Source: Patescibacteria group bacterium (GTDB lineage Bacteria > Patescibacteriota > Patescibacteriia > 2-01-FULL-39-33). Taken from it: a DNA stretch of 64,000 bases. Shown here one piece after another: positions 18,221 through 64,000 of this stretch (the first letter of the stretch is position 1; each line of letters opens with the position of its first letter). The notes beneath the pieces are model-generated. The model was not told the DNA's origin and searched no databases. It was given only the letters and a program-made list of their open reading frames with translations. The translations under genes were made by a program, and so were the position numbers. The DNA lies in the NCBI GenBank assembly GCA_041650895.1, contig JBAZKF010000001.1, forward strand, positions 637,181 to 701,180. Direction: 5' to 3'.

Positions 18221-18228
18221 AATTTTAA

Positions 18229-18818: not shown

Positions 18819-18842
18819 AGTGTAAATTTAGCCAAATTATAA

Positions 18843-18998: not shown

Positions 18999-18999
18999 A

Positions 19000-22099: not shown

Positions 22100-22104
22100 T
22101 AATT

Positions 22105-22134
22105 AAAAAATCCTCCTAAAAGGAGGATTTTTTA
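22105..22134. terminator. bidirectional terminator
   Basis: AAAAAATCCTCCTAAAAGGAGGATTTTTT. Confidence 0.7.
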
Positions 22135-22887: not shown

Positions 22888-22933
22888 AATTAATTAAAAT
22901 ATACCCGCGTTTTGACCGCGGGTATAGGATAAT

Positions 22934-23356
22934 TTATTGTTTATCAATTATTGGCGGCTTTAATTCCATTTTCTTTTGTTTCGTAGATTCCGGTTTAGGA
23001 CTGCGATCCTTATTATCATTCATAGTACATTTACCATTAATTAAAGCACCGCCGGCAATTGATAATATCCCTGTTTTTATATCACCGTAAATTCTGGCAG
23101 TTGATGTTAACTCTAATTTATTTTTTATACTAATATTTCCTTGTATTTCCCCGGCGATTAAAGCATTTTCTGCTCCAATATTAGCGAATATTTTTGAATC
23201 TGGGCCTACTTTAAGATTTTTACTTGTTTTAATGGTGCCGCAAATCATACCCTCAACAATAATATTGCCTTCAGTAATAAAATCACCTTCGACTTTTACT
23301 GATGGACCGATAATAGTATCTGTCTCATTTATTAATGGTTGGTTTTCTTTAAACAT
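22934..23356 (-). CDS. bactofilin (polymer-forming cytoskeletal protein)
   Basis: Repetitive beta-helical segments (IIGPSVKVEGDFITEGNIIVEG..) typical of the DUF583 / bactofilin family. Confidence 0.75.
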   Translation of the reverse strand: MFKENQPLINETDTIIGPSVKVEGDFITEGNIIVEGMICGTIKTSKNLKVGPDSKIFANIGAENALIAGEIQGNISIKNKLELTSTARIYGDIKTGILSIAGGALINGKCTMNDNKDRSPKPESTKQKKMELKPPIIDKQ

Positions 23357-23468
23357 AATAATTTATTAATATAGTTATATTATATAACAATTATCCCTGG
23401 ATTAAAATATGGAAAAGTCAAGTATTAATAATTCATTTATTTTTAATATTCTGTTATAATATAGTTAT

Positions 23469-23906
23469 ATGACTAATTCTTTCCTAAAAACAAAATTAAA
23501 CTCAGAAAACGAAAAAACCCAAGAAAATAATGATTTTATCGGGTATTTTGGTAATAATCCTCAATGGTTTGATGGGGAAGCACAATTATCTTGCGATGTT
23601 TATGAGACAAAAAATGATATTATTGTCAGGACTACGGTTGCCGGAGTCAAACCTGAAAATTTGGATATTTCCATTTCTAATGATTTATTAACTATCCGAG
23701 GATCGCGTCAACAAGAAGAAGAAGTTAATAAAGAAGATTATTATTCTCAAGAGTGTTATTGGGGAGCCTTTTCCCGCTCAATTGTTTTACCAAGAGAAGT
23801 TGATCAAAAGAAAATAGATGCTAATCTTAAAAATGGCGTATTAACAATAAAACTTCCTAAAAAATATAAGACGTCAGGGATAAAAATAAGGCAAATAAAT
23901 GAGTAG
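23469..23906 (+). CDS. Hsp20/alpha-crystallin family small heat-shock protein
   Basis: Alpha-crystallin domain LSCDVYETKNDIIVRTTVAGVKPENLDISI...GAFSRSIVLP...NGVLTIKLPK. Confidence 0.8.
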   Translation: MTNSFLKTKLNSENEKTQENNDFIGYFGNNPQWFDGEAQLSCDVYETKNDIIVRTTVAGVKPENLDISISNDLLTIRGSRQQEEEVNKEDYYSQECYWGAFSRSIVLPREVDQKKIDANLKNGVLTIKLPKKYKTSGIKIRQINE

Positions 23907-23909
23907 TTT

Positions 23910-24137
23910 ATGAATAATCAGGAAAAAGGAGTTATTATAAATCAAGAAGGTGATTCATTTATAATAAAATTTAATGATGGACGAGAATTGCCTTGGCCTA
24001 AGAAAAATATTAATTGGGTAATTAAAGAAGGTGAAATAGTAAAAGTTACTGTTTCCCCACAAGTACTGGAGAATGATTTTCAGGAAGATCAGGCTAAAAA
24101 TCTATTAAAAACAATTTTTCAAACAAATAATGCTTGA
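23910..24137 (+). CDS. hypothetical small protein
   Basis: Tight spacing between hsp20 and the vanW-like gene. No recognisable motifs. Confidence 0.35.
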   Translation: MNNQEKGVIINQEGDSFIIKFNDGRELPWPKKNINWVIKEGEIVKVTVSPQVLENDFQEDQAKNLLKTIFQTNNA

Positions 24138-36440: not shown

Positions 36441-36910
36441 TAGAGGGTAAAAACTTAACACCAAACTCTTTCCCAAAAGATAATCAAAATTAAGTTGTTT
36501 TATCCGCCAATACTAATATTGTAGCGGTATAAAAAAGGGAAAACAGTGGTATCTGAAATGAATTTTGTCCAGGACAAAGTTCGCCAAATCGGATCCCTCT
36601 GTTTTTTCTTAACTTGAAAAATGACTGTTAGGAAAAGTATTTTGACAACTGAATAGTGGTAAAAAGCACCAAACCAAAGAATTTAAATTTGAGTTTTTAT
36701 GAATTCGTTTCCGCCCCCGCGGAGTAAATCGAATTCAATACAATACTTTCAATCCAACTTTATGACAGCCGGTTCTCCGGTGCGCCCTTAGCGCAAGTCA
36801 TAAAGCGAAAAAAACGGTTGGCAACTGATCGTAATCTAGTTGCAAAGCCAGTTGAATGAATTTTTTTTATCTCACTTCGGTGTTGATAAGGAACCCTTTC
36901 ATTCTTCTTT

Positions 36911-38384
<1,474 letters not shown>

Positions 38385-46933: not shown

Positions 46934-47914
46934 ATGAAAAGTTCAGCCGTGGTTTTATGTTTAATCCTGGCGTCCGCTTTGATTTTATCGTCGGGTTGCG
47001 CCACTAATCGAAGAGTTGAAACGGTCGTTACCACCACATCGGAAAACGGCATAACGACTGTTACTGAAGAAACGGTTATTACGGAAGAAGTTGTCTATCC
47101 CGATCCTGATCATTATTATTACGTTGTCGGCAGTGTTACGCATCGCGTCTACTTCGGCGTGGATACGGTTTGGGTCCGTCCGGTGCCGGTTGATTATGTG
47201 GTATTAAATTATTATTGGCGTCCGACGTCTTATTACCGCAGTCATTTTCATCGGTCGCCCGGTCATCATCACGGTTATGTTGACGTGAATGTGGGTATTT
47301 ATGGTGTTTCAATGACTCATCATCGGCCAAGATCTTATTCTTCGCCATCGCGGCATGAACCGCCGCGATTGCGACCTGAGTCCAGGCATGGGCAACCGCA
47401 ACACATGTCACCGCCACGACAGCAGACGCAACATGGCAGTCCCAGCATGAATCGCTCGGTAACGCCGTCGCGGCCGTCTTATGCGTCACCGTCTCGGCCA
47501 CAAACACCGCAGACGCCGGCGAGATCAGTAGCCCCAGCTCGACCGATGCGTAGTGCGCCCCAAACTGTCCGGCCGACTTCGCCCGGACAGCAACACAATT
47601 CCAATGTAAACCATTCGCCGGTACCTTCGCGTCAAGCACCGTCGCGGCCGTCTCATGCGTCACCGTCTCGGCCACAAACACCGCAGACGCCGGCGAGATC
47701 AGTAGCCCCAGCTCGACCGACAACGCGAAGTATGTCGCCGGTTCGTTTACCACAACGCAGTGCGCCGGCAAGATCGGTGGCACCCGCCCGGTCGTCTCGG
47801 CCAACTCATAGCGTGTCGCCCGCTCGTTCGCCACAACGCAGTGCGCCCGTCAATCGATCCCGGTCCGCTCGTCCTACAAATAGTGGCGGACGTGGTAATG
47901 GTCGTAACAAATAA
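46934..47914 (+). CDS. secreted lipoprotein with Pro/Ser/Arg-rich low-complexity C-terminal repeats
   Basis: SD AAGGAGA. Lipobox LSSGC. An internal ~67-nt segment is directly repeated (47479-47545 and 47653-47719), which encodes the repeated SPSRPQTPQTPARSVAPARP. Confidence 0.6.
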   Translation: MKSSAVVLCLILASALILSSGCATNRRVETVVTTTSENGITTVTEETVITEEVVYPDPDHYYYVVGSVTHRVYFGVDTVWVRPVPVDYVVLNYYWRPTSYYRSHFHRSPGHHHGYVDVNVGIYGVSMTHHRPRSYSSPSRHEPPRLRPESRHGQPQHMSPPRQQTQHGSPSMNRSVTPSRPSYASPSRPQTPQTPARSVAPARPMRSAPQTVRPTSPGQQHNSNVNHSPVPSRQAPSRPSHASPSRPQTPQTPARSVAPARPTTRSMSPVRLPQRSAPARSVAPARSSRPTHSVSPARSPQRSAPVNRSRSARPTNSGGRGNGRNK

Positions 47915-48195: not shown

Positions 48196-49440
48196 ATGAA
48201 AATTATCGCCGATCTCCATATCCATTCCAAATATTCCCGCAGTTGCAGTCAAGATCTGACTTTACCCAATATCGCCAAATGGTGTGAGCGTAAGGGTATA
48301 GGACTGGTTACTACCGGTGATTTCACTCATCCGGCCTGGTTTAAATCAATTAAAGAAGAATTAATTCAAGCGGAACAGGGATTTTTTCGGCTTAAAGACG
48401 ACCCCTCCACGGTTAGGTTTGTTTTAGGCGGAGAAATCAGTTGTATTTATACTCAAGGAGGGAAATGTCGTCGTGTACATATTTGTTTGCTTTTGCCGTC
48501 AATTGAAGCGGCGGAGGAATTAATTCAAGAGTTAATTAATCGCGGCTGCAATCTCAAATCCGACGGTCGTCCGATTATCGGCTTGTCGGCCAAGGAGCTG
48601 GCGCGTTTGGCTTTTGAGATTGATGAAAATATTATCGTCTTTCCCGCGCATGTGTGGACGCCATGGTTTGCCGTGTTCGGTTCCAAGTCGGGATTTGATT
48701 CGCTTCAGGAATGCTTTGAAGAATTGACACCGAAAATTTTTTCAGTGGAGACGGGGCTATCCTCCGATCCATTAATGAACTGGAGTTTGTCATGTTTGGA
48801 TGAAATAACTCTGCTCTCTAATTCTGACGCGCACTCGCCAGCCAATCTCGGACGCGAAGCTAATGTATTTGATTTTAAGGAAAACGAATTCACTTATCAA
48901 GAACTGAGAAGAATAATAAAAGAAAAAGATCGAAAAAAATTTCTGATGACCTTGGAGTTTTTTCCCGAAGAAGGCAAGTATCATATTGACGGCCATGCCG
49001 CTTGCGGTTTTTTTTGCGTGCCGGAAAAAAGCAAACAGTTGGATAACAAATGTCCTAAGTGCGGCAAGTCGCTTGTTCTAGGCGTACTCAATCGGGTTAG
49101 CTTATTAGCCGATCGGAGCGAGATCAAGGCGGATGAGTTCATTCCCTATAAGAATCTGATTCCTTTGCAGGAAATAATCGCCGACGTTTTGGAAGTCGGC
49201 AAAAGTTCCAAGAAAGTCCAGAGAGAGTACTTAAGTTTAGTCCGCCATGCCAATGAGTTTTCCGTGTTATTGGATTCATCCTTGGCGGAATTGAGGGAAA
49301 TCACTTTACCGGAAGTCGCCGAAGCCATAATCGCCATGCGTCAAGGCCAGGTGGAGATTTCCGCCGGTTATGACGGAGTTTTTGGAAAGATAAAAATAAA
49401 AAATGCCCGACTTAGGGTCGAACAGAAAAAAAAATTTTGA
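48196..49440 (+). CDS. PHP-domain nuclease, endonuclease Q-like
   Basis: N-terminal PHP motif IADLHIHSKYSRSCS. C-terminal zinc-finger CPKCGKSLVLG. ~414 aa matches the EndoQ architecture. Ends with a TGA stop. Confidence 0.55.
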   Translation: MKIIADLHIHSKYSRSCSQDLTLPNIAKWCERKGIGLVTTGDFTHPAWFKSIKEELIQAEQGFFRLKDDPSTVRFVLGGEISCIYTQGGKCRRVHICLLLPSIEAAEELIQELINRGCNLKSDGRPIIGLSAKELARLAFEIDENIIVFPAHVWTPWFAVFGSKSGFDSLQECFEELTPKIFSVETGLSSDPLMNWSLSCLDEITLLSNSDAHSPANLGREANVFDFKENEFTYQELRRIIKEKDRKKFLMTLEFFPEEGKYHIDGHAACGFFCVPEKSKQLDNKCPKCGKSLVLGVLNRVSLLADRSEIKADEFIPYKNLIPLQEIIADVLEVGKSSKKVQREYLSLVRHANEFSVLLDSSLAELREITLPEVAEAIIAMRQGQVEISAGYDGVFGKIKIKNARLRVEQKKKF

Positions 49441-49818: not shown

Positions 49819-50391
49819 ATGACAAACAACATGACAGCGGAACAATTGAAAGAAAAATACCAGAGCTTCCTTAAGACGGAGTTTACGGTTTTTGATCTGG
49901 AAACATCCGGTTTGGATCCACTGCGGGATGAAATTCTGGAAATCGCCGGCATTCGGTTGCGCGGCGATGAAGAATTGGCTCGTTTTGAAGCTTTAATCCG
50001 CCCCACTCGTCCGATTCCGCCGGAGGTGGAGAAGATTAATGGTTTAAATGAGATATACTTATTGGTCAATGGCCGACCCAGCAGTCAGGTGTTGGTTGAG
50101 TTTTTGTCTTTTATTGACGGCTCTATCATTGTCGGCCACAATATTAAAGAGTTTGATTGGCTATTTGTTTTGTCGCATATTAAACGCCACGTTTTGAATG
50201 CACCGCAACATAAAATGATTGATACTCTGGAGTTATCCCGTAAGTTGTTGTCTTTACCGCAATATAATTTAACAGCGGTGGCTCGCCATTTTGGACACGA
50301 AAATCGTAATGCTCATCGCGCTATGCCTGATGTGGAAGTCAACGCTAAAGTATTTGTTAATCTTATGGAGCAAATGCTTAAAGTTCAATAA
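49819..50391 (+). CDS. dnaQ: DEDDh 3'-5' exonuclease (DNA polymerase III epsilon-like)
   Basis: Exo I FTVFDLETSGLDP, Exo II HNIKEFDW and Exo III HRAMPDV are present. A TTATCCACA DnaA box sits upstream (49717-49725). Confidence 0.75.
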   Translation: MTNNMTAEQLKEKYQSFLKTEFTVFDLETSGLDPLRDEILEIAGIRLRGDEELARFEALIRPTRPIPPEVEKINGLNEIYLLVNGRPSSQVLVEFLSFIDGSIIVGHNIKEFDWLFVLSHIKRHVLNAPQHKMIDTLELSRKLLSLPQYNLTAVARHFGHENRNAHRAMPDVEVNAKVFVNLMEQMLKVQ

Positions 50392-50777: not shown

Positions 50778-52400
50778 CTATTCCGCAGAAGTCGACGGAG
50801 CGGTCGTCGGCTCTACTCTTTCCGCTTGAGGCAGGCCCCCCATAACCGGCTTAAAGCTGACATTAGCTTCCAATTGATTCTTCCAAGCGCCAGAGTCGGC
50901 TGATTCCATCCAATAAACGCATTGGTTGGCTGCATCAGTCAATATCACATCAGGACGGTTGCCGGCGATATAGTGTTTAGGGTCATTACTGTCCAAGGTA
51001 ACGACAGTGGTCAGCCAATAGAAGCGGATCTTATCGTTTACCCTGGTGATATAGGGCCGTTGCTCGACCGGTCGATTGATTGTCCAGTCAAAGAATTTAT
51101 GATCGCCGATAACTTTATTGGTTACGGCGGTTACTCCCAGCATTGGTTCTTTCTGATGATGAGAAAAAATGAATATTTTACTCAAGCCGTCAGCCGGCAC
51201 GAACAAAGAGACGGATAATCCTTGCGATTTTTCCGAGTAAGGCTGAAGCGAGAAGTAGTGATAAAGAGCGTCTTTGCCGCCGAGTTGCCCCAGACGGAAA
51301 AAGATAGTGAAGGGCTGATCGTTCATATCCTCGGGCATATTGGCGATTCTGACATCGCCGTTATGTATCCAAGGTAGAGGAGCGGATAGTCCTTTATGGA
51401 ACTTGAAGCTTTCAGCAATGTAACGGGATACTTTATAAGACAAGACATTCTGTCCATCCAGGAATGGGTGGTTTTTCATTTTGGCCGGCGGCACATAATA
51501 GCCGCAACCGAACATGACTCGCCTGATGCTTTGCCAGACGTTGTCTGGCGATTGTTCAATTATCTGTACTCCGCCAAAAATCGGCCGTGGAAACAGTAAT
51601 CCTTTCCAACGGATCAGTGGTACTACTTGCACCATCTTTCCAGAATCGTCTTTAAGGTAGATAACTCCGTCCGGTTCATAATTGAAGTAACGCCATAACC
51701 CGAAAGCGCGGCTGACGGCGGTGTAAGTATTTCTGCTCCATTTAAGGTTTTCTCCAGTTTCGAATTTGACGTTAATTAGGTTTTGCAACCCCCAATCCGG
51801 AGCCGGAGATGTGCCATCAACATTATAAACTTGGCGAATTCCAGAGAAGATACGGGGTAAAAGAGGAGTAGGCTCAATGCCCATAGTAAAACGGTATTGA
51901 CTGCCGATCCGCACAAAATGCGGTTCAGCCGGTTGGACGTTGTCTTGCACTAATTCCCGCGCTTGCGAGAAAACAGAGTTAAGCGGTAAGATCCGCTCGT
52001 AAGCCGTTTCCGGTAATTGCTCCAATTCTACGAAATCATTGACTTTGTAGCAGTAATACTGCGCCAGATAGTGATGAATCGGCTTGCCGACCTCATAAAT
52101 ACCGAAGCCAATAAGCAGATAGAGTACTACTAACAGTAGTTTACCGCGCCATCGATATTTGCGGTACAGCCAACGGAAAATGCCTATGGCCGCAATAATC
52201 GCCAAGAAAGAACCAAAGAACTTTCTGACAGTAATGACGGATCCGTATACATACCCGCGAGCTATAAATAGCTCTAAGCCGGTTGCTATCAGGAGAATAG
52301 TAAAAATCAACCAGTGACGTTTAGCGAAATTCATTGACCAGACGGCGCTGTGTTTGAAAAGCCAGAAAAGCCGACCGTGTTTATCTTGTTTTTCACTCAT
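50778..52400 (-). CDS. hypothetical polytopic membrane protein with large extracytoplasmic domain (540 aa)
   Basis: SD AGGAGATAG. Four N-terminal TM helices, then a ~400-aa Trp/Tyr-rich domain. Unassigned. Confidence 0.55.
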   Translation of the reverse strand: MSEKQDKHGRLFWLFKHSAVWSMNFAKRHWLIFTILLIATGLELFIARGYVYGSVITVRKFFGSFLAIIAAIGIFRWLYRKYRWRGKLLLVVLYLLIGFGIYEVGKPIHHYLAQYYCYKVNDFVELEQLPETAYERILPLNSVFSQARELVQDNVQPAEPHFVRIGSQYRFTMGIEPTPLLPRIFSGIRQVYNVDGTSPAPDWGLQNLINVKFETGENLKWSRNTYTAVSRAFGLWRYFNYEPDGVIYLKDDSGKMVQVVPLIRWKGLLFPRPIFGGVQIIEQSPDNVWQSIRRVMFGCGYYVPPAKMKNHPFLDGQNVLSYKVSRYIAESFKFHKGLSAPLPWIHNGDVRIANMPEDMNDQPFTIFFRLGQLGGKDALYHYFSLQPYSEKSQGLSVSLFVPADGLSKIFIFSHHQKEPMLGVTAVTNKVIGDHKFFDWTINRPVEQRPYITRVNDKIRFYWLTTVVTLDSNDPKHYIAGNRPDVILTDAANQCVYWMESADSGAWKNQLEANVSFKPVMGGLPQAERVEPTTAPSTSAE

Positions 52401-52411
52401 GGTGCTATCTC

Positions 52412-53185
52412 CTATTCCCTTTCTTGGTCGGAGTTATTCACTACTCCTTCAGGGCTGCCAGGACTGCTTTCACCTCGGGCAAAAGCTTTTAGATTAGCTC
52501 TCGCCGCCCTTAAGCGTTCATCATTCAACGGAGTGGCTTTGGCCTTGTCGCCTACAAGATTAATGCTGGTTTGCACAGTTGCAAGTTCTTGTTGCAGGGC
52601 GGATAGCTCGGAAGTCGCCGTTGTTGCCGGCAGTTCTTCTGTTTCTGCAGGAGTCGCGGTAATAACCACTGGTTGTTCCGGCTGATTAGCCGTTCTAACT
52701 GCGTCTTTAAGGGCGCTTCGCCAATTGGCTAAACCGCCGGTTAAGTTATTCCACCAGTTTCTGGCTTTCTTTTTGGCTTCATTGCCGACTTGGATTTCTC
52801 CGGTTTCAATCCTGTCGATTACGTCTAGATGCTTCAGTAATCTTTCACGCTTGCCCAAGAGTCGCATAACCATGGGACCGCAATAGAAGCCGACCATCGT
52901 AAAAACGACAGCCATTAACAACAAGAAGGAATTGACTGCGGGGCCATGCACCATCATATAGAGGCATAATCGCCAATTAATGAAACCCAGAAGCAAGGCC
53001 GAGTAAAAGCGTCCTCGCGCTTTACGACCTAAGATGAAACCGGAGACTTGATCGGCCGGTAGGCGCTTACTGTGGGTCAGATTGTAAACGAAAGAGAATA
53101 CAACTACCCCAAAGTATTTATCAAGACCGAACCAGACGATACCGAGAGCAGTGAACAACAGGGCATACGACAAAAAAATTAGCAT
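52412..53185 (-). CDS. hypothetical membrane protein (3-4 TM) with cytoplasmic Ala/Thr/Glu-rich coiled tail
   Basis: SD AAGGAGA. 11-nt gap to the downstream gene. Confidence 0.5.
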   Translation of the reverse strand: MLIFLSYALLFTALGIVWFGLDKYFGVVVFSFVYNLTHSKRLPADQVSGFILGRKARGRFYSALLLGFINWRLCLYMMVHGPAVNSFLLLMAVVFTMVGFYCGPMVMRLLGKRERLLKHLDVIDRIETGEIQVGNEAKKKARNWWNNLTGGLANWRSALKDAVRTANQPEQPVVITATPAETEELPATTATSELSALQQELATVQTSINLVGDKAKATPLNDERLRAARANLKAFARGESSPGSPEGVVNNSDQERE

Positions 53186-53243: not shown

Positions 53244-54536
53244 TTAATCAGTTAGTTCTTCCTTAGACGCTCTTTCTCTTAAGATGTTCATTTTTGGTCG
53301 GTAATGTTTCTTGAGCGTGGCGATGGCCCAGAGCTGTTTTGCTTTAGGCCAACCGTCATAGCGCTTATAGAACAGATTCTTATCGCAGATAAAAGTGATA
53401 AGCAGCCGCCAGGGCTGTAGTCGCGCAATCAGCATGCCGACCAATTCCCATATTTCTTCTTCCAGGTCCGGACGGGGTTGCAAGAGCAAAAGTTTAAGTT
53501 CATCTGACAATTCATCAAAACTTTCAACTTCGTTTTGTTCTAAGCGTTTGATCAGCCGTTCCAGATCTTTGTAGATTTTGGGAATTTTGGTGCCAAGGCT
53601 TCTCAGACGCGCCTTTTTTTGCGGTTCCGTCAAATGAAGATAATCAATTTCGGGATCGGCGGCGGAAAGGATATCAATCAGCAGGCAATCGCGTTTTTCT
53701 TCTAGGATTTCGGGGTGCTCCCGATACCAGGAAAGATTAACAGTGATCAGTCCGGCTTCTTCCAATCGATCGATTAAATGCTTGTTGGTCAATGGGAAAA
53801 TGTCAATTTGTGTTGCTCGATTTTTTTTGGCCAGCTTGCCATCCTCAACAACCATGAAGTCTCCCCCCGGCAGATTACGGAAGACAAAAACGCCGTTAAG
53901 CGCCCGACTGTAAAAACAGCCTAATTTTTCGTAGCGCCAGTCCGGTATTTCTACCGTACGGTATCGCAAGTTGCCATACTTTTGAGCGCTAGCGATAAGC
54001 TGGCGGGTTAATTCCCTGTTAGCCCAGTTATTGCCGGGGGCAAGAAATTCTTCCGTCAGTTTTCTTTGATGTTGAGCCGCTTGAATCAAGTCATCGCAAT
54101 AACTTATAACCGTGATATCTTCTACTAAAAGCAGATCCAGGATTGTTTCATAAGATGTCAGTTCCTGATCAATATCCAGGGCTATGCCGGAAGTCGTAGT
54201 GATATCCGCAATAACCTGGCGGAACTTTTTGAAGAACTCCGCCATCAGCGAACGATCAAACGAACTGAAGGGAAAGTAAATCGGTTTATGCTCTTGATCG
54301 GGGGAAAGAATTATTGCTAGTTGATTAGCCACGCCATGTGACAGATACAGCGGATTGCCGGTTTCTTGGGCGATTTCCGGCGACCAACCGATGCCATCAA
54401 TGGAAAATGAGGTTAGTTGAGTCGGGGGAAGTCCCAATCGTTTAAGGCAATCGTTATATCTTTCAATAAGTTGCGGCGTGTCCACCAGAGTCAATCCTTG
54501 GCCGAATAATCCGGCATCAGCAAGTAATTTATCCAT
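53244..54536 (-). CDS. hypothetical soluble protein (430 aa) with N-terminal FGQGL motif
   Basis: SD AAAGGAATAAA. Its N-terminus MDKLLADAGLFGQGLTLVDTPQL shares a motif with the N-terminus of the 56557-57789 protein. Confidence 0.55.
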   Translation of the reverse strand: MDKLLADAGLFGQGLTLVDTPQLIERYNDCLKRLGLPPTQLTSFSIDGIGWSPEIAQETGNPLYLSHGVANQLAIILSPDQEHKPIYFPFSSFDRSLMAEFFKKFRQVIADITTTSGIALDIDQELTSYETILDLLLVEDITVISYCDDLIQAAQHQRKLTEEFLAPGNNWANRELTRQLIASAQKYGNLRYRTVEIPDWRYEKLGCFYSRALNGVFVFRNLPGGDFMVVEDGKLAKKNRATQIDIFPLTNKHLIDRLEEAGLITVNLSWYREHPEILEEKRDCLLIDILSAADPEIDYLHLTEPQKKARLRSLGTKIPKIYKDLERLIKRLEQNEVESFDELSDELKLLLLQPRPDLEEEIWELVGMLIARLQPWRLLITFICDKNLFYKRYDGWPKAKQLWAIATLKKHYRPKMNILRERASKEELTD

Positions 54537-54617
54537 TTTATTCCTTTCAGTTCAACCCCGCCAATATTTTGGAGGGGGTTAGGTTTTTTACCATAACCCC
54601 CTCCGTTAGGAGAGGTC

Positions 54618-56567
54618 TTACTTGTGCGATTCCAGCCAGTTTTGGACTGCCTGGTTGGCTTCCAGTTGAATCATCATTTGTTCGCTTGCCCGTTCCACTT
54701 CGCGACGATGACCCAAGTCAACAATTGCTACCATATTGTCCAGGTAGCGCATCGCCTCTTGGAACCTGATTTCTGCGAACGATTTGCCTCGCATATTCTG
54801 TTGCATTAATCCTAATACCATAATCTTTTGTTGGTCGTAGGGTTGACGGAAAAATATTTCCGGATCGGACATCCATTCTTCAGGTAAGTCAAAGTCTAAT
54901 AGCCGATCATCAACGGCCCGTTGAATATTGCGGGTGTCGCGCGAACTGAATTTGGGGAATTGTCTTTGGACTTCTTGATAGAGCTTAGCAAAAAACTTTT
55001 GTTCATTAATATCATGTTCTTTGTTCACTCGGTTGAAAATATCCAAAATAGTCCGTTCCCTGGGTTGCTGATAGCCGACGTAGGTCTCGGCCATACTGCC
55101 GATTAAACGTTGGGCAAATAAGTATTTGTAATCGTCAGGATCGGTCATGGCGATGAAAGCAGGATCGATTTCGGCGATGCGCTTCCACCATAGGTGGTCC
55201 TGATCCAGGAAATCTTGCCACGTTGTGGCTCCTTCAATTTTGAAGCGGGTCACGATACGCGACAGTAGAGCCGAATCCAGTTGGTCGGGAATATTAGTCA
55301 GAAAGAACACTACGGAGTTGCCTCGCCAAATAGCCGAAGCTCCTTCCAAATTGGTCAGAGCCGCACCGATAACCTCACGGACACCGGCAGATACGCCTTG
55401 GCGAGTCCTGTCTTCATAATTAACTTCAGCATCATCGGCCGGTCCGAAAGAAATCCTGTCAGGATTTAAGATACGTTGCCACCATTCCTCGGCCCGTTCT
55501 CTGGATCCGCCTTGGTAGGTAGAAACGATATTGGGGGGATGAGGATCAAATACATAAGGTAATTCCAACCACTGACAGAGATCATAAAGCATGGTGGAAA
55601 AGGCGCCAATCATCATGGTTTTACCCGTACCGGGAATGCCAAACCCTATGCTGGCGGTCGGCATACCTCCTAAATCAAACATGACGTTGCGTCTTTCCGC
55701 TACTTTATAACAAGCTGTGCGTACTGCCAATCGTTGAAAAAAGCGTTTGGCATCGCGATTGCCGACAATAGTGTTGATATCAACCCGCTTGAACTCCACG
55801 CTAATCGCGTTGTTTAGTCCGTTTTCAAAACCGGAAATGGTAAAATCTTCCCCTGCCAACTTGTAAGTTATATCGGTAAAGAATTGAGTGTATTCCAACG
55901 AGTCGCGACGCAGTTTGATTTCATCCAGTGCTCCTTTAGCCGCCACTTGGACGGCTTTGAGCAGATCCAAATCATTCCTGACTTTTCCTGATTCCTGGAC
56001 GAATTTTCCCATATAGACTAGCAGGCAGTTAAAACCGCGCAGATAGTCGGTCAGACAGATTTCCGGATAGCCCGGAAAGTCCATGGATAGGGAATCCAAC
56101 TTTTCACCCTTGTAACGCGACAATGACCAAAAGACGAAAGAGGCGAAGCTGAACTGGGCGACGGCCGCAGCCGTTGCCAGTTTTTTGGAAAACTCCGCTT
56201 TTTGCCCTTCATTCAGTCGTTGGCGCGAATTGTCATCAAGCAGTTTAGCCAATCCCGAACTTTTAGCATACATCTCCACCACGTAACAGCCAATGCCGAT
56301 TCCCGTGTATAAGGAGTTAAGCAGTTGGTTGACGTTGCCTGAATTAATTGTTCTGTTGGGATTGTATGGTTTAACGAGCTCCAGCCAATTGATTCTTTCC
56401 TCCATCGGCGCTGATTCGCTAAACTTTAATCCGCCAGCGGTCGAAGGAGGTGTTAGCGGCTTCTTTGGCAGCCAACCGGCGTTTTTTATTAATTTGTCGG
56501 CAAAAGCATCAAAAGATCTGAGTTGCTCTGCCGTAATCGGCACGCAGGATCCGTTTTTATCTCCCAT
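54618..56567 (-). CDS. classic-clade AAA+ ATPase with ~280-aa N-terminal domain and C-terminal extension
   Basis: SD GGAGGAC. Walker A GFGIPGTGKT. Sensor-1 FFLTN. Arg-finger region SALLSRI. A hydrophobic segment AAAVAQFSFASFVFWSL lies upstream of the ATPase core. Confidence 0.75.
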   Translation of the reverse strand: MGDKNGSCVPITAEQLRSFDAFADKLIKNAGWLPKKPLTPPSTAGGLKFSESAPMEERINWLELVKPYNPNRTINSGNVNQLLNSLYTGIGIGCYVVEMYAKSSGLAKLLDDNSRQRLNEGQKAEFSKKLATAAAVAQFSFASFVFWSLSRYKGEKLDSLSMDFPGYPEICLTDYLRGFNCLLVYMGKFVQESGKVRNDLDLLKAVQVAAKGALDEIKLRRDSLEYTQFFTDITYKLAGEDFTISGFENGLNNAISVEFKRVDINTIVGNRDAKRFFQRLAVRTACYKVAERRNVMFDLGGMPTASIGFGIPGTGKTMMIGAFSTMLYDLCQWLELPYVFDPHPPNIVSTYQGGSRERAEEWWQRILNPDRISFGPADDAEVNYEDRTRQGVSAGVREVIGAALTNLEGASAIWRGNSVVFFLTNIPDQLDSALLSRIVTRFKIEGATTWQDFLDQDHLWWKRIAEIDPAFIAMTDPDDYKYLFAQRLIGSMAETYVGYQQPRERTILDIFNRVNKEHDINEQKFFAKLYQEVQRQFPKFSSRDTRNIQRAVDDRLLDFDLPEEWMSDPEIFFRQPYDQQKIMVLGLMQQNMRGKSFAEIRFQEAMRYLDNMVAIVDLGHRREVERASEQMMIQLEANQAVQNWLESHK

Positions 56568-57789
56568 TAATCAAGTCCTCCCCGTTAAAGGTTATGTATT
56601 TGAAGCTGGCAAATCCCAACTCGGAGAGTTGGTGATCATTGACGGCTTGTTGCAATAAACAATGAGGCAGAATGCAATAATGTCTGACTGCGGAAACGTG
56701 CCGTTGCTGGCATTCCATGGAGAGTTCGTTGATCTTAAAAACTTCTCGGACTTTGCGCCGCAAGGGCCGGCCATAGACTTCTTGCCGTTCGGAAATAACT
56801 TCTTCTTCAGTCAGCAATAAGACAAAGTCGTCTTCTTTCCGGCTGAATTCCGTCATAATCCGACACCAAGCTTCTTGCCATTTGTCAGTGTTTGCTGACA
56901 GGTTATCGCAAAGGAACTTGGAATATAACGGCCCTAAACCGATACGCCTGATAATTTTAGGATGGATATTAACCAAACGATCATCAATATCCAAAGCCAG
57001 GATTCCGAGCTGGGGAGCCCGCGAGCCGACATTGGTAATGATGTGCAAGAATTCTTTCCAGGTTTGCCCGTACTCTTCCAATGGTTCGCAATCATTGTCA
57101 TGTTCAAAATTCATCAGATATAAGTAGGGGCGGTTAGTGGTAAAATCAAAACAAGCCCAAGCGAAACTGTAACATCGCGCCTTAGGATTGTCTGATTTTA
57201 ACGCTGTCAATTCTCCAGCCGTAAACGGCAGGAATAATTTGTCCTCCGCTAACATGGAAAAATAAGATCTTTCGCCTAAAATCGCCAGAATATCTTCTGC
57301 TTCAGTCAGTTGATTGAACATGTATTCCAGCGCTGTCCTTTTCAGACGGTCCGATCCGGGCAAACTAGCCAGTCGTTCATCGCGTTGCAGATAGTCAATC
57401 CTTAGATTATCAAGCTCAATAAAATTAGGAAAGCCGGACTCGGTCAAGTCCACTCGCAGGCGATGCTGGTTGTTGTGGATATATTTCATTCTTAGGCATT
57501 CCATGGTGTAAGAAAAACGTTTTAGAAAATCAATAATGATGCCGGTTTGATTATCGGCGTTGTTGCCGATTTTATGACACCAGGATAGCAGAATTTTTAT
57601 TACCCGGAGCTGCTGAGCGAAATACTTGACGTATTTGTCAGTATCTTCCAGTAAGGCAAAATCCATACTGCCTCCATCAGTAAAATCTCCGCCGACTAAG
57701 CTATTGAGCTCGTCAGCAGATCGTCTTAAATCAGCGGGGGTAATATTAACCGTACTTAATCCTTGGCCGAAAAATGATAGTCCTCCCAT
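56557..57789 (-). CDS. hypothetical protein (410 aa) with N-terminal FGQGL motif
   Basis: Start set at MGGLSFFGQGLSTVNITPADL, 7 nt after SD AAAGGAG. Overlaps the AAA+ gene by 11 nt. Confidence 0.5.
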   Translation of the reverse strand: MGGLSFFGQGLSTVNITPADLRRSADELNSLVGGDFTDGGSMDFALLEDTDKYVKYFAQQLRVIKILLSWCHKIGNNADNQTGIIIDFLKRFSYTMECLRMKYIHNNQHRLRVDLTESGFPNFIELDNLRIDYLQRDERLASLPGSDRLKRTALEYMFNQLTEAEDILAILGERSYFSMLAEDKLFLPFTAGELTALKSDNPKARCYSFAWACFDFTTNRPYLYLMNFEHDNDCEPLEEYGQTWKEFLHIITNVGSRAPQLGILALDIDDRLVNIHPKIIRRIGLGPLYSKFLCDNLSANTDKWQEAWCRIMTEFSRKEDDFVLLLTEEEVISERQEVYGRPLRRKVREVFKINELSMECQQRHVSAVRHYCILPHCLLQQAVNDHQLSELGFASFKYITFNGEDLINGR

Positions 57790-57880: not shown

Positions 57881-59206
57881 TTATTTACCCTCATCTCCTC
57901 CGAAGAATGATTCTTTTCTCAGATCAAAACCGTAGTTTTTTTGAAACAGTTCAATTTGTTCCTCTACGTCATTTCTGAATTGTCGATCCTGTTGATTGGA
58001 AGCCGCCATAATTTCGTGGTAGAGTTTGAGCCACTCCGGTATTTCTTGAAGCGCTTTAACCAACGCTTTTTGGGCCGCGGCTCGGATTTCCGCCATACTG
58101 GCCATACTTCTGGCGTCAACTCCCCGGCCGGCTTTGTTCAATTCTTCGGCCGTCGCCAAATCTTGATGGGATTTAGTGGCTTCCAACCAGGAACGCACCG
58201 TTGTCTGGCGGTATTCCACCTGTTTGGTGATCATGGCTTGCCAGGTGAGATTGATGGTCAGAAGGTCATTAAGTGTTTGGACATGAAGGTCCAATTGATG
58301 CGCAAAGTTTTGCGCTTCCTGGGCGATTGCCATACAAATATTATATTTGCCTTGCAAGGCATTCAGTGATTGCTTCAAATCGGAAGTTTTCTGGTCTTGC
58401 TTGGCAAAGCCTTTGTCTGTCCTATCCATTGTTACCAATGTCTGTTCGGCCTCGGCCAACTCACCTTTGAGCGCGACAATCTGTTGGTCAAGTCTTTCGC
58501 AAGCTTCGTTTGCTTGCGTGTGGGTTTCAAACGCCGCCCGTTTCTGCGCCTTGTCTTGTTCCAGTTGCATTTTCTGTGACTGAGCGCGAGCTTGCATGGC
58601 TTTCAAAAGCCGACCGCAAGCCAATTTGTAAGCCGTCAGACTATCTTCAATGGTTGCGTTGCTGAGGCGATCGCGCATTGCCTTATTGATACGTTCTTTG
58701 GTCGCCGCTTCCAATTGTTGGGCCGACGCTAAGTCAGTCTGGGCGTTGCGGATGGCGCTTTGGCGGAACAAACGTTTGGCCTTGGCCTTGGCTAAGGCAA
58801 GTTCAGCCTCTTTAATTCTGTTTCCGGCTTGTACCAGGGACGCCTGTTCTTGTGGCGTCATTTCTTTGAGTTGGATTACCTCGGCTCCCAATCCTTCCAG
58901 TATGATATTGAGACTTGCCATCATGCCGGCCAAGTCCGTTTTTTCTTTGGCCAAACTGGCGCGAACTTGCTCCCAGTCGGCCTTCTTTAAGCGACTCTTG
59001 ATGTCTATACTAAGAGTCGGACCTTGGCTTTTGGTGGCTGTTTCCAGACCTTGTCGCATATCGCCAAGTATGGCGTTGATATCAAAGCCCAAATTTATTG
59101 ATGCCGGTTCTTGCTCCAACTTTTGGCTGGCGGTATCCAAATTTTGTAGCATACTATCCAAGAAATTAGATCCGTCAACTCCACCGCCCGTTTGTTCTGT
59201 CGTCAT
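57881..59206 (-). CDS. long coiled-coil protein (Gln/Ala/Lys/Glu-rich heptads), first gene of the operon
   Basis: SD AAGGAG. Predicted extended coiled coils across most of its 441 aa. No catalytic motif. Confidence 0.55.
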   Translation of the reverse strand: MTTEQTGGGVDGSNFLDSMLQNLDTASQKLEQEPASINLGFDINAILGDMRQGLETATKSQGPTLSIDIKSRLKKADWEQVRASLAKEKTDLAGMMASLNIILEGLGAEVIQLKEMTPQEQASLVQAGNRIKEAELALAKAKAKRLFRQSAIRNAQTDLASAQQLEAATKERINKAMRDRLSNATIEDSLTAYKLACGRLLKAMQARAQSQKMQLEQDKAQKRAAFETHTQANEACERLDQQIVALKGELAEAEQTLVTMDRTDKGFAKQDQKTSDLKQSLNALQGKYNICMAIAQEAQNFAHQLDLHVQTLNDLLTINLTWQAMITKQVEYRQTTVRSWLEATKSHQDLATAEELNKAGRGVDARSMASMAEIRAAAQKALVKALQEIPEWLKLYHEIMAASNQQDRQFRNDVEEQIELFQKNYGFDLRKESFFGGDEGK

Positions 59207-59589: not shown

Positions 59590-60462
59590 TTATGAGCCGA
59601 AGCCGTTGGCGTCGGGCCCTTTTGGTTTGCTCCGTCCCGCCTTCCGCGTCATCCTCGTTTTCTTCGGGCCGTCTTTCGATTCCCCTTCCGGCTTATCAAC
59701 GGGTTGCTCTGGGGGTTGCTCCGGGGCGGGATCGGCGGTAGCAGCAGCGCCGTTGGCGGTAGCAACAGCCTGGCCGGCCGGAATGTTTTTTACCGTATCA
59801 GTTCGCTCGTAAGCGGTTTGATCTTCCGGACAGCTTTGTAACTGATCCCTTATTTCGTCATAATCCCTCTGTAATTCGTTAATCATCGTTTGCAGCTTCT
59901 CATTGTCTTCCCGTTGCTTTTTTAGAGTCAACTGGTACTCGCGATACTTGCGATAGGAGAATAAGGAAACGAAGTAAGCAACGATGATCGGCAATATCAG
60001 CCACCACGAGAAAAGTAACAGAATAAGCAATAAGCTGGCCATCCCTAGGGCCAGACCGGCAACCATACCGTGGATTATTGCGCCCATTAAACAGACAAAA
60101 ATTGCGCCTAACAGACTACTGATAACACCGTAGCCAAGCTCCATTTCAATAGACTTAATAACGGCTTTAGCATTCTCTTCTCTGTACTCTTGGTATGTCG
60201 GGATAGGGAACCCCTTAATCTTTTTGGTGATGTTTTTTTCCCATAGGTAACTCCATAGATAATCATGCGCATGGAGACATTCCATCCACCACTGGGGCGG
60301 TAACCAGAGAACTTTGAAACTCCACCAGTGGTCGTGTCGTTGTTTGATGCTATTAACCAGGACTATGACCGGTATGGTCGACCAAGTAAAGAGCGTTAAT
60401 GAGCCTATCAATATTCCGATGTAGAGAGAGTGCCAAAGGCAAAGAGTGAGCAGAGTGTTCAT
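59590..60462 (-). CDS. membrane protein, paralog 3 of a tandem triplet (4 TM, WLPPxWW motif, basic Pro/Ala-rich tail)
   Basis: Shares VLVNSIKQRH...WLPPQWW and the helix layout with the two upstream genes. Confidence 0.6.
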   Translation of the reverse strand: MNTLLTLCLWHSLYIGILIGSLTLFTWSTIPVIVLVNSIKQRHDHWWSFKVLWLPPQWWMECLHAHDYLWSYLWEKNITKKIKGFPIPTYQEYREENAKAVIKSIEMELGYGVISSLLGAIFVCLMGAIIHGMVAGLALGMASLLLILLLFSWWLILPIIVAYFVSLFSYRKYREYQLTLKKQREDNEKLQTMINELQRDYDEIRDQLQSCPEDQTAYERTDTVKNIPAGQAVATANGAAATADPAPEQPPEQPVDKPEGESKDGPKKTRMTRKAGRSKPKGPDANGFGS

Positions 60463-61253
60463 TGTTCGTCCTTTCCTGTTGGGGGCGGTGTTTCTTTTTT
60501 CTTTTTCGTTGTTGGCTGTTTTCTGGTGTGCGTTGGTTTGTTCTTTGGCTTATTATCTAGCGTCTTTTTGGGGGTATCCGCTCGTTTCTGTCTCGGTGGT
60601 CCTATATTCTTCGCACAAACATTGGTAACAGCGGTAGTTTGATCAGTCGTATTAGCCTCTGTTTCTTCTAATCGTTTGCGCAAATCATTAACGCAGTCAC
60701 ACATTCTTTCGCTCATAGCTATCAGCTGGTTCATAGTTGTCAGATTCTCGTCATATCTTTTTTTCTTTTCTTGGATTGATTGACATTTGTGATGAAAAAA
60801 TCGGTAAATGAGATAGGTAATAATGATCGGAAAAGTCAGCCACCATAGATAGCCCAGTAACAGACTGGCCGTCACCAAAGCCAGACTGACGGCCGTGCCG
60901 CAGGTTACTGCTATTATCAGACAAGAGAGAAGTACGGCGAAAAATCCGTCAATGACCTCGTCTTTCGTTACCTCATTGATAGCTCTAATTATCTCCTTAG
61001 GTCTTGCGTTAGCGTACGTTTGGTAGGTTCTGATATCACCAATTATCCAAGGGAAACAGTCTATTATGTAGTCGATGGCATAAAAGCAGGCCATCCACCA
61101 CCATGGAGGTAACCAGTCAACCTCGAAAGGTCGTCGGCGGTTATGACGTTGTTTGATACCATTGACCAAGACTATGGTTGGGAGAACCGAATAAGCAAAA
61201 AACGTCAATGCGGCTACTAACGTGCCGATGTAAAAGATAGTTAACGCGTTCAT
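60459..61253 (-). CDS. membrane protein, paralog 2 of the tandem triplet
   Basis: VLVNGIKQRH...WLPPWWW. The C-terminus KKKKETPPPTGKDEQ is identical to paralog 1, and ~50 nt of the 3' DNA is identical. Confidence 0.6.
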   Translation of the reverse strand: MNALTIFYIGTLVAALTFFAYSVLPTIVLVNGIKQRHNRRRPFEVDWLPPWWWMACFYAIDYIIDCFPWIIGDIRTYQTYANARPKEIIRAINEVTKDEVIDGFFAVLLSCLIIAVTCGTAVSLALVTASLLLGYLWWLTFPIIITYLIYRFFHHKCQSIQEKKKRYDENLTTMNQLIAMSERMCDCVNDLRKRLEETEANTTDQTTAVTNVCAKNIGPPRQKRADTPKKTLDNKPKNKPTHTRKQPTTKKKKETPPPTGKDEQ

Positions 61254-61978
61254 TGTTCGTCCTTTCCTGTTGGGGGCGGTGTTTCTTTTTTCTTTTTCGT
61301 CTTCGCTCTCGGCCTTCCGGCGCGCGTCGGCTTTTTTGGGTTTGGGGAGGCGTTGGTTGTTGCAATTGACGTTGCTATAGCGAACAGCGCTGATTTCAAT
61401 TCTATAATCTCCTCGTCAATAACCTTTTGCCTAAGCTGATAGCTTTTGATAGCGCGCCAAATAATGTAAGCAACTCCGCCGATCAGCCATAACCACCAAG
61501 TGTATTTGAGTAGTAAGCCGATTATCGAAACAATCATAAGCAGTAATGTGCCGAATGAAAACAAGAGAAGCCAGGTGCCAGCCGCGACCATTGCCGGGAG
61601 TAATACTCCTAATACAAACGTAATAAAAATCATTGCACTAAGTGAGATATCCAGAGGGTGCTCATTAAGCAGTCTCTTTTTACCGCATTCTACCCAGCCG
61701 TCCAGCGTCTCATTGAAATTATCTTTGACTCCCGAGGTGAAAAGAATAATGTAGTAATAAATAAAAGCATGATAAGCGATTAGCCAATCGGGTGGTAGCC
61801 AAACAGCTTTATAATCTTTCCGACGGAATCGGCATTTGGCGCCGTTTACGATAATAACCAGTAAATGGATGAAAAAGGCTGAAAAAATGGCAAAAAATGC
61901 CAGTTCGGTGCCAAGCCGTACCAGATGATCAAAGTATAACGAAAAAGTCCAACTAATTGCTAAAAGTAACATTTCCAT
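61250..61978 (-). CDS. membrane protein, paralog 1 of the tandem triplet
   Basis: Start at MEMLLL after SD AAGGAGAAC. WLPPDW motif. Same C-terminal KKKKETPPPTGKDEQ. Confidence 0.55.
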   Translation of the reverse strand: MEMLLLAISWTFSLYFDHLVRLGTELAFFAIFSAFFIHLLVIIVNGAKCRFRRKDYKAVWLPPDWLIAYHAFIYYYIILFTSGVKDNFNETLDGWVECGKKRLLNEHPLDISLSAMIFITFVLGVLLPAMVAAGTWLLLFSFGTLLLMIVSIIGLLLKYTWWLWLIGGVAYIIWRAIKSYQLRQKVIDEEIIELKSALFAIATSIATTNASPNPKKPTRAGRPRAKTKKKKETPPPTGKDEQ

Positions 61979-62297
61979 GATGTTCTCCTTGCCTTTTATG
62001 GCTGTTTTGGTTTGCGCAGTAATGTTTTTAAGTTTTGAATGTGCCGATCTTCGTACCACAATATCATATAAGCGGTGAAAAGTCAATGGTTAGTGGAGAA
62101 GTTGGGGAAAAGTCAGCAGTTTCATTATATAAGTCAGAAAATAAAGGAATTGGGAGACAGAAGCTATTTTTTGATTGATCTGTTTGGTTTTTGTCGACAA
62201 AGTTATAAAACTTGTTTAAATTTAGGCAAATTATTCATTAATTTTGTCTTGCCGCGTGCTTATTTATCCGTATATTTTCTATTTTTTTATTTATCTC

Positions 62298-62326: not shown

Positions 62327-62789
62327 TGTAGACATCTGACTGACACCGTTGAATAACTGAAGATTCGGCTTTGCAGAGCCAAAATTCAGCTTAGTTTGTC
62401 TCTTTAATCCATAAATGCCGGAGGGCATATTGGAAAGGAACAATAATATGAGATTAAACATCACCAATAATTCTTCTCCAAGTCAAACGGACTAACCTTT
62501 TTAGTGTCCGCCAGAACCGCTTGGAGAAAGCGGTTTTTTTGTTAGCTTCCGAATCCGATCGATAATGGAATTTATCGCTCAAATTGCGGAAGTTAATGTC
62601 AAATATCCTGAACCTGGGAACATTGACAACTGAATAGTGTATAGTAAAGAAATGGGTAATTTAATGTCGCGCCAAAATTTATGGGCGTGGCAGCGAATTG
62701 CAATTATTAATGAGTACATACTTTTAGTATTTTAGTAATAAAATACAAAATAAGGAAAAACTCTTTTTAAGAGTTATCCAGATTCTTGC

Positions 62790-64000
62790 GATTAAACATT
62801 AAGGGCGAATGGTGGATGCCTAGACATCAAAAGGCGATGAAGGACGTAGCAGCCTGCGAAAAGCTTCGGGGAGGTGGCAAGCAACCTTTGATCCGGAGAT
62901 ATCCGAATGGGGAAACCCGGCGCGGCAAACCCGCGTCATTTGTGACTGAATTCATAGGTTACAAACGCAAACCCAGCGAAGTGAAACATCTCAGTAGCTG
63001 GAGGAAAAGAAAAAATTGAATCCTTAGTTCCGTTTTCTGCGTAAGCAGAACACGGATCTATGGATTGCATTCCGCGAGTAGTGGCGAGCGAAAGCGGAGC
63101 AGCCTAAACCTTAGCAGTGTTGACGGTGTGAAACTTTTCCCGCAAGGGGAAGGCGTAGCGCCGGCATAAAGGAGTGCCCGTTGCTGCTTTGGGGTGATGA
63201 TTATAACTTTCGGATTGCACTTATATCCGAGCGGAATAAAATTTTTAGCGGAACGGTTTTGGAACAGCCGGCCAAAGCGGGTGAAAGCCCCGTACGCGAA
63301 AAGAATCGTACTTCCGTCGTTATAATCTAGAGTACTACAGGACTCGTGAAATCTTGTAGGAATCCGCCATGACTATATGGCAAGGCTAAATACTTTTGAT
63401 GATCGATAGCGAACAAGTACCGTGAGGGAAAGGTGAAAAGCAGCCCGGTTAGGGCGATGAAATAGTATCTGAAACCATTTGCTTACAAACGAGTCGGAGT
63501 CCAAGGTCGTAGCAATACGAATTCTGGATGACGGCGTTCCTATTGAAGAATGAGCCAACGAGTTTATTCTGCGTTGCTTGCTTAATCCCTTCGGGGAGAA
63601 GGCATAGTGAAAGCGAGGATTAATAGTCCGAACAATTGTAGCGCGGATAAGACCCGAAACGAAGTGATCTATCCATGGCCAGGGTGAACCAGATGTAACA
63701 GTCTGGGAAGGCCCGAACCCACAAGCTGTGCAACACTTGGGGATGAGCTGTGGATAGCGGAGAAATTCCAATCGAACTTCGTGATAGCTGGTTCTCCTCG
63801 AAATAGCTTCAGGGCTAGCTTCGAAAATAGACCCGGGGGTAGAGCACTGAATGAGGACAGGTCCGCAAGGTTACTGTCTTCAATCAAACTCCGAATACCG
63901 GTAATCTTTATTTCGGAAGTCAGACTATGGGCGCTAAGGTCCATCAGTCAAAAGGGAAACAGCCCAGATCGCCAATTAAGGTCCCTAAATCTATGTTAAG
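62790..64000 (+). rRNA. rrl: 23S ribosomal RNA, 5' portion (runs off the window end)
   Basis: GGTGGATGCCTAGAC...GCGATGAAGGACGT...CCGAATGGGGAAACCC...GAAACATCTCAGTA are conserved 23S domain I motifs. ORF-track hits inside this span are spurious. Confidence 0.95.

Follow-up and report, generated by a model that had tools for sequence, protein, structure and literature searches.

A stretch of 64,000 nucleotides (nt) from a Patescibacteria genome, hereafter the window, encodes at positions 53244-57789 two proteins, here called A and B, that flank an AAA+ ATPase and share a short peptide near their N-termini, with the common pattern FGQGL…V…TP…L…R near residue 10. We propose, at about even confidence, that this peptide is the ancient N-terminal element of the DUF6638 family in A and a lineage-specific copy or mimic of that element in B, which would bind at the same site as a consequence. 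A sequence-only reading of the window, made without database searches, had drawn attention to the peptide and had interpreted it as a sign of deep paralogy or as a tag for the ATPase or for export. All genes of the region lie on the minus strand, and those on which the argument turns are, in window coordinates:

53244..54536, minus strand: protein A, 430 amino acids (aa), a member of DUF6638 (PF20343)
54432..54536, minus strand: residues 1-35 of A, the family-conserved N-terminal element
54468-54512, minus strand: residues 9-23 of A, the motif as delimited in the sequence-only reading
54618..56567, minus strand: classical-clade AAA+ ATPase, 649 aa, between A and B and overlapping the end of B by 11 nt
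56557..57789, minus strand: protein B, 410 aa, from a family without a Pfam model and without a structural relative
57658..57789, minus strand: residues 1-44 of B, the lineage-specific N-terminal extension
57727-57783, minus strand: residues 3-21 of B, the motif

Protein A starts with MDKLLADAGLFGQGLTLVDTPQL and protein B, read from the ATG at 57789, with MGGLSFFGQGLSTVNITPADL. Their best alignment, FGQGLTLVD-TPQLIERYNDCLKRL / FGQGLSTVNITPADLRRSADELNSL, spans residues 11-34 of A and residues 7-31 of B, with 12 identities in 25 positions and one gap. The open reading frames (ORFs) lie where the sequence-only reading had placed them, and its claim of a motif common to both neighbors of the ATPase is borne out. 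The regular expression that it gave was approximate: the shared core stands, but in A the TP follows [DN] directly, and the leading GL stands two residues out of register. It had described the remainder of the two proteins as not obviously alignable by eye, and the alignments agree. BLASTP finds nothing beyond the motif (E = 0.054 for the full pair), and a comparison of the A family (48 sequences) with the B family (24 sequences) in hhalign gives a probability of 0.27% and aligns nothing but 18 columns of the motif. No further long ORF of the window contains FG.GL, whichever frame is read.

First, the peptide in A belongs to the family as a whole. Protein A matches Pfam PF20343 with E = 6.3e-38 (131.2 bits vs a cutoff of 27), residues 15-413 falling on profile positions 5-398 of 439, and the protein search found 141 homologs. 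The 120 listed homologs cover several phyla (with members in Patescibacteria, Flavobacteriaceae, Desulfobacterales and other groups), and nearly all of them open with a form of the family signature M-x-K-L-x-x-A-G-L-F-G-x-G-L-x-x-V-x-TP-x-L-V-x-RYN-x-CL, which A carries in full; the motif itself takes the form L-[FY]-G-x-G-L-x-x-[VI]-x-TP-x-[LM]-[VI]-x-RYN. Among 48 diverse members, R26 and Y27 are invariant, and the core positions are kept to varying degrees: L10 in 44/48, F/Y11 in 40/48, G12 in 35/48, G14 in 34/48, and L15 in 47/48. Flavobacterial members replace G-x-G by R/Q-S-E (e.g. L-Y-R-S-E-L). Conservation in A is highest over the first 100 residues, where the column entropy is 1.1-1.7 bits vs 2.3-2.8 bits in the C-terminal half.

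The AlphaFold2 (AF2) model of A has a mean confidence score (pLDDT) of 92.7, and its N-terminus comprises helix 2-7, the GLFGQGL loop 8-15, strand 16-18, and helix 21-33, which starts at TP; the first three blocks of ten residues score 83, 93 and 97. Judged by this model, the motif in A is a built-in structural element, and not a free tail or tag. A Foldseek fold search returned no PDB relative of A, and the family profile gave no convincing PDB sequence match. DUF6638 is a family without a solved structure or known function, and no paper on it was found in the searchable literature.

Second, the peptide in B is confined to the lineage of the window. The B family comprises 24 homologs from the protein search and about 70 from genome loci. 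It matches no Pfam, NCBIfam, PADLOC or PHROG family, DUF6638 included, and it has no fold match in PDB or BFVD and no convincing PDB sequence match by family profile. Among the 24 homologs, only the relatives at 100% and 88% identity carry the motif, and the next relatives (at most 44% identity) have a different or later start. Stop-to-stop translations of about 68 distinct B loci contain an FGxGL-type sequence only in L005, a sister genome at 88% identity, and in L009, besides the window; about 65 other B homologs from the same gene cassette lack the motif. A metagenome scan for B recovered the known 88% relative only, and the 44-residue N-terminus yielded no candidate in an index of 5.8 billion proteins. 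The idea that the motif is hidden upstream of mis-called B starts was rejected: in the two loci for which the DNA upstream of B was translated, L001 and L003, it contains stop codons, and the stop-to-stop segments lack the motif. The sequence-only reading had asked whether the motif would fade into noise across homologs, and the answer differs between the two proteins: in A it is kept across DUF6638, and in B it is seen only in the window's lineage.

The start of B at 57789 is preceded, 5 nt upstream, by the Shine-Dalgarno sequence AAAGGAG. The JGI start lies 5 codons earlier and has no Shine-Dalgarno sequence, and the ORF could reach 57894; either start keeps the motif inside the first 16 residues. 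Between the window and L005, codons 1-44 of B show a synonymous divergence (dS) of 0.64 and a nonsynonymous divergence (dN) of 0.051, and hence a dN/dS of 0.08, compared with 0.09 for the rest of B. By this codon-level measure, the B extension is translated and under purifying selection in the window's lineage. An in-frame ATG at codon 45, with GGAGG upstream (57655-57672, minus strand), would give a start that matches those of most B homologs. Exclusive use of this internal start (Met45), which would leave the motif untranslated, was rejected on two grounds: its Shine-Dalgarno sequence is not conserved in L005, and the codons before it show the constraint just described. A shorter, motif-less B isoform is possible in the window's organism.

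In the AF2 model of B (pLDDT 84.3 overall), residues 1-16 score below 50, with only two sequences informing that region, and they are followed by helix 18-31. Three of the next relatives, the B proteins of L001, L011 and P0003, have an N-terminal helix at the same place without FGQGL, so that the helix of the extension may predate its FGQGL part. The helix of B in L011, SPVLVERMARSEMSRL, faintly resembles a segment of its own A, TPALVDRYNECLKFL (score 23).

Third, we evaluated the resemblance between A and B against chance, using Smith-Waterman scores of the N-terminal 40 residues with a shuffle null and a cross-locus null. The window pair scores 40 (shuffle p = 7.7e-4), and the L005 pair scores 50 (shuffle p = 1.5e-5). 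Same-locus comparisons of A and B N-termini in 65 other genomes average 14.6 and reach at most 25, and the cross-locus null of ~4,400 A vs B comparisons has a mean of 14.8, a standard deviation of 3.5 and a maximum of 36. The two pairs of the window's lineage (40; 50-51) are the only outliers, and lie above all of the cross-lineage comparisons. Furthermore, B agrees with A at family-conserved positions of A (F11, G12, G14, L15, V18, T20, P21, R26 and L31), and TP starts a helix in both AF2 models. As judged by these sequence comparisons, the resemblance is probably real.

At the DNA level, A and B share 17 of 18 nt in the window (ATT[A/T]TTCGGCCAAGGATT), a match that beats all 2,000 shuffles. 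In L005, the corresponding stretches agree at 14 of 18 nt, with three to four synonymous differences in these codons. The lower value is as expected by chance at a dS of 0.64, and the identity in the window is no evidence of copying; recent or ongoing gene conversion between A and B was rejected for the same reasons. At this divergence, the DNA trace of an old copying event would not survive, and partial duplication and convergence fit the sequence data alike.

The explanation that we favor can be set out as follows. The motif of A is a conserved DUF6638 element, in which a short helix leads through a loop with Gly-x-Gly to a beta strand and then to a helix capped by TP. The N-terminal region of DUF6638 would form the structural, and probably interactive, core of A in a cytoplasmic, membrane-associated AAA complex. 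Only in the window's Patescibacteria lineage, B would have gained an N-terminal extension of ~44 residues, of which the first ~30 would copy or mimic residues ~10-34 of A, and purifying selection has retained it. As the likeliest consequence, the extension would engage the surface used by the element of A, either on the body of A, through an in-trans swap of strand and helix, or on a partner common to both, e.g. the ATPase, and would thereby add a lineage-specific contact within the complex. If a transfer occurred, its direction was probably from A to B, because the element is ancient in A and new in B. The data show how the motif is distributed, that it is constrained, that A and B are not paralogs and that the element is ordered in the model of A, whereas the direction of copying and any role in binding are inferred. 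We put forward the binding role, i.e. that the extension engages the same surface as the element of A, only tentatively, and somewhat doubt it ourselves.

Several observations weigh against this explanation. The match is short, and its chance probability, when corrected for the window scan and for ~70 lineages, is roughly 1e-3 to 5e-2; the same score is reached by 8 of 3,655 pairs of real N-termini. A hidden Markov model (HMM) of the DUF6638 N-terminus (35 positions, built without the A protein of the window) gives 55-75 bits for every DUF6638 protein in the fetched loci, and 0.8 bits for B, which is noise (E = 25 among 1,242 ORF segments). Missing from B are Y27 and N28, both invariant in DUF6638, as well as the near-invariant C30, and it has no RYN. 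The 17/18-nt stretch is the only candidate for a DNA trace of copying, and it shrinks to 14/18 in L005. Finally, the element of A looks, in the model, packed into its own fold, and need not be an intermolecular docking site.

Most of these observations, together with the BLASTP E value, would be explained if the B extension were functional for an unrelated reason and its FGQGL and TP-capped helix merely coincided with those of the neighboring protein. We consider such a coincidence unlikely: the L005 pair has a shuffle p of 1.5e-5, both window-lineage pairs exceed all cross-lineage comparisons, the matches fall on family-conserved positions of A at an equal distance from the N-terminus, and the two genes belong to one conserved operon.

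The ATPase that separates A and B matches PF00004 with 25.2 bits (cutoff 21.2). It has a Walker A motif, GIPGTGKT, at residues 310-317, a TN…LD.ALLSR segment, and a candidate pore loop, YQG, in register with YIG of PEX6. Pore loop 1 of a substrate-threading ATPase reads aromatic-hydrophobic-Gly; YQG has the aromatic residue and the Gly with a polar residue between them, and all of 17 homologs keep its Q and G. Matches of the family profile are to Cdc48 D2, NVL, PEX6 and Rpt4, with E = 6e-5 to 6e-4 over a core of ~130 residues only (query 315-443), and there is a faint CdvC/CDC48 match in NCBIfam (E = 0.005). The N-terminal ~300 and C-terminal ~200 residues match nothing known in the profile search, and a sequence-level test detected no p97-type N domain. 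Taken together, these matches identify the ATPase as a divergent, Cdc48-like AAA of the classical clade.

This assignment bears on the suggestion of the sequence-only reading that the peptide is a recognition tag for the ATPase. In its general form, the suggestion implies that the N-terminal peptides of A and B are recognized by the ATPase, through its N domain or its pore, as those of adaptors or substrates throughout the family. The intact Walker A motif, the aromatic-x-Gly pore loop and the Cdc48/PEX6-like core agree with such a role, as do the modelled disorder of B residues 1-16 and the hydrophobic-x-G-x-G pattern, which recalls the SHP box that binds the p97 N domain (PMC5042407). However, about 65 other cassettes keep the ATPase with a B protein that lacks the motif, both Gly residues are changed to R/Q and E in flavobacterial DUF6638, and the ATPase has no detectable p97-type N domain. 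Terminal flexibility, examined as a test for a degron or pore-engagement tag, differs between the two proteins: the motif of A is ordered and folded (pLDDT 83-97), not a free tail, and the low-scoring residues 1-16 of B are covered by two sequences. We thus regard a general tag as improbable. A narrower form, in which the peptides of A and B have a shared binding function specific to this lineage, is plausible on the sequence evidence.

Deep paralogy, in which A and B derive from one ancestral gene with only the N-terminus still recognizable, would fit the adjacency of the two genes, their similar lengths (430 and 410 aa) and the common N-terminal stretch, and is highly improbable and close to refuted: hhalign aligns nothing past the 18 columns, B has no DUF6638 match, the predicted order of elements differs (alpha/beta and then a helical C-terminal half in A; a helical hairpin and then a large beta sheet in B), and the stretch is absent from all other B lineages, which is opposite to the prediction for an ancestral remnant. 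An export or membrane-targeting signal common to two secreted or membrane-bound proteins is just as improbable, in spite of the extreme N-terminal position and the membrane proteins downstream in the cassette, since neither A nor B has a hydrophobic signal-like segment (no 19-residue window with a mean Kyte-Doolittle value of 1.6 or more) or a twin-arginine or lipobox pattern, the N-terminus of A lies within a globular fold in the model, and the motif is found in no other window ORF.

The genes discussed so far are part of a six-gene cassette that is transcribed in the order: a coiled-coil protein (CC), B, the ATPase (AAA), A, and membrane proteins of 257 aa and then 540 aa. Three membrane proteins that are paralogs of one another (62086-59590) precede it. 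Further features of the cassette are:

57881..59206, minus strand: coiled-coil protein (CC), the first cassette gene, 441 aa
57831..57860, minus strand: terminator-like hairpin between CC and B, an 11 bp stem followed by TTTTTCTTTC (z = -7.2)
54571..54604, minus strand: stable hairpin without a T tail between the AAA gene and A, GGAGGGGGTTA…TAACCCCCTCC (z = -4.2)
52412..53185, minus strand: membrane protein downstream of A, 257 aa, at least two hydrophobic segments
50778..52400, minus strand: membrane protein, the last cassette gene, 540 aa, with three transmembrane segments at the N-terminus and a large soluble domain

The conservation of the cassette was evaluated in a scan with one genome per species, which found a DUF6638 relative in 457 genomes; the best 80 of these were examined for gene order. 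In 70 of the 80 loci, CC, B, AAA and A occur in the same order and on the same strand, and the remaining 10 are mostly on contigs that end short upstream of A. A homolog of the 540-aa membrane protein is present in 70/80 loci (E down to 0), and homologs of the 257-aa membrane protein occupy the same position in Patescibacteria, Bdellovibrionota and other loci. B and AAA are at most 20 nt apart in 33 of the 70 loci, and AAA and A in 26 of the 70; genes that overlap or abut in this way point to a complex whose proteins are translated together. The cassette is found in Patescibacteria, Bacteroidota, Bdellovibrionota, Desulfobacterota, Deinococcota and Gammaproteobacteria. Its patescibacterial carriers include Buchananbacteria, Sungiibacteriota, Pacebacteria, Taylorbacteria and Saccharibacteria, and the others include Bdellovibrionota, a gammaproteobacterium, Desulfobacterota (e.g. 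Desulfonema magnum), Trueperaceae, Chitinophagales, Saprospiraceae and many Flavobacteriaceae. Carriers that can be cultivated are Winogradskyella, Dokdonia, Polaribacter and Desulfonema magnum. Among public genomes, the nearest is a metagenome-assembled genome of Patescibacteria close to Candidatus Buchananbacteria, with 89% identity for A.

No homology was detected among the cassette proteins in the comparisons of AAA with A, AAA with B, CC with A, or A with B. Membrane segments are predicted in the two downstream proteins, and not in A, B, CC or the ATPase; the 540-aa protein matches no Pfam family. The PDB and Pfam matches of CC are generic coiled-coil noise. For all cassette components, no function, solved structure or paper was found beyond the generic AAA domain. 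Two readings of the cassette were considered and rejected: anti-phage defence, with no significant PADLOC match (best E = 0.0098 and 0.018), and an origin from phage, with no meaningful PHROG match.

Both intergenic hairpins are conserved in L005, and the one upstream of B has a T tail. Each of the two, upstream of B and upstream of A, has GGAGG at its start and CCTCC at its end. Upstream of B, CUUUC is also predicted to pair with GAAAG of the Shine-Dalgarno region of B in a second stem, a hint that the operon controls the relative expression of its genes. The extreme C-terminus of CC (…YGFDLRKESFFGG…; 57881-57943, minus strand) is conserved across phyla with the pattern YG[IF]D…SFF, in which G426, I427 and D428 are invariant or nearly so in 17 homologs; this terminal peptide of a coiled-coil partner of the ATPase could be a docking motif. 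An hhalign match between the CC C-terminus and residues 32-60 of A (E = 0.044, probability 1.2%) was regarded as noise. The neighbors of the cassette include an RNase_T-type exonuclease (49819-50391) and a 414-residue MJ0043_C-type protein (48196-49440), both of which are syntenic with Candidatus Buchananbacteria contigs (L001, L005), in support of the taxonomic placement.

The three tandem paralogous membrane proteins upstream of the cassette (59590-62086, minus strand) have 278, 264 and 290 aa and pairwise identities of 30-37%. The first two end in an identical tail, KKKKETPPPTGKDEQ, and share an identical 23-nt DNA stretch at 60466-60488 and 61257-61279, which suggests, at the level of sequence, recent duplication or conversion of their 3' ends. 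Elsewhere in the window, the 16S gene (36908-38382), which is followed by tRNA-Ile, tRNA-Phe and tRNA-Pro, and the start of the 23S gene (62789-64000) are unlinked, lying 24 kb apart on the same strand with the AAA cassette between them on the opposite strand. Positions 18001-24000 have a GC content of 0.25-0.27, compared with about 0.42 elsewhere in the window, and may be a horizontally acquired or otherwise atypical island. The N-terminus of a 326-residue protein at 46934-47914 (plus strand) resembles that of a signal sequence or lipoprotein (…LILSSGCATN…), and its C-terminal half is rich in Pro, Ser and Arg, with repeated PSRPQTPQTPARSVAPARP units.

The shared peptide alone is a small lineage-specific feature of modest interest, and its value is as a handle on the cassette. 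If the B extension does mimic the element of A, the element would be marked as an interaction surface and would provide an entry point to the assembly of the complex. The uncharacterized, multi-phylum cassette is a more valuable lead than the motif: it joins DUF6638, the B family, CC, two membrane proteins and a divergent Cdc48-like ATPase in an operon of strict gene order. Patescibacteria are a group known for small genomes, and a lineage of this group has retained the cassette.

Finally, we compared the peptide and the cassette with known systems. As for DUF6638, A covers nearly the whole of the PF20343 model and its N-terminal motif is the family's own signature, whereas B is not a member by Pfam, by hhalign or by the N-terminal HMM. 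Like the classical AAA proteins (Cdc48/p97, NVL, PEX6 and the proteasomal Rpt subunits), the ATPase has a Walker A motif of the form GxPGTGKT, a candidate pore loop of the form aromatic-x-Gly and the TN…LD.ALLSR segment; unlike them, it has a single AAA module, of which only ~130 residues align (E around 1e-4), and it is encoded with five partner genes of no known family.

The MIM motifs of ESCRT-III are C-terminal helices that bind the MIT domain of Vps4/CdvC, and ESCRT-III N-termini have the form M-x-L-F-G…TP-x-E. The likeness lies in a terminal peptide that is common to several partners of a classical AAA, and is a looser analogy than the SHP box considered below. An ESCRT-III-like reading of the cassette was rejected: no cassette protein matches Snf7 or PspA, neither the model of A nor that of B is a helical hairpin of the ESCRT-III type, and no such fold came up in the PDB search.

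The closest parallel is the SHP box (BS1), an 11-residue peptide, F-x-x-F-x-G-x-G-x-x-L, with two strictly conserved Gly residues (FRAFSGSGNRL in Ufd1), which extends the p97 N domain by a kinked strand and is common to non-homologous p97/Cdc48 cofactors (PMC5042407). The hydrophobic-x-G-x-G core is present in the A (L-F-G-Q-G-L-T-L) and B (F-F-G-Q-G-L-S-T) proteins of the window, as a resemblance in pattern that carries no evidence of binding. A has L at SHP positions 4 and 11, B has F at position 4 and T at position 11, and position 1 is non-aromatic in both. The differences are that: (i) SHP boxes are internal or C-terminal, and the motif of A and B is N-terminal; (ii) the Gly residues are not kept across DUF6638 (35 and 34 of 48 members); and (iii) the element is folded in the model of A, and the ATPase has no detectable p97-type N domain. 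By analogy with the SHP box and p97, the cassette might be an undescribed membrane-associated remodelling machine, spread over several phyla and built around a Cdc48-like single-ring AAA, whose partners dock by an N-terminal hydrophobic-x-G-x-G-hydrophobic strand and to which the lineage of the window would have recruited B by copying the docking peptide of A. We offer this wider picture as a speculation with little probability of being correct as a whole.

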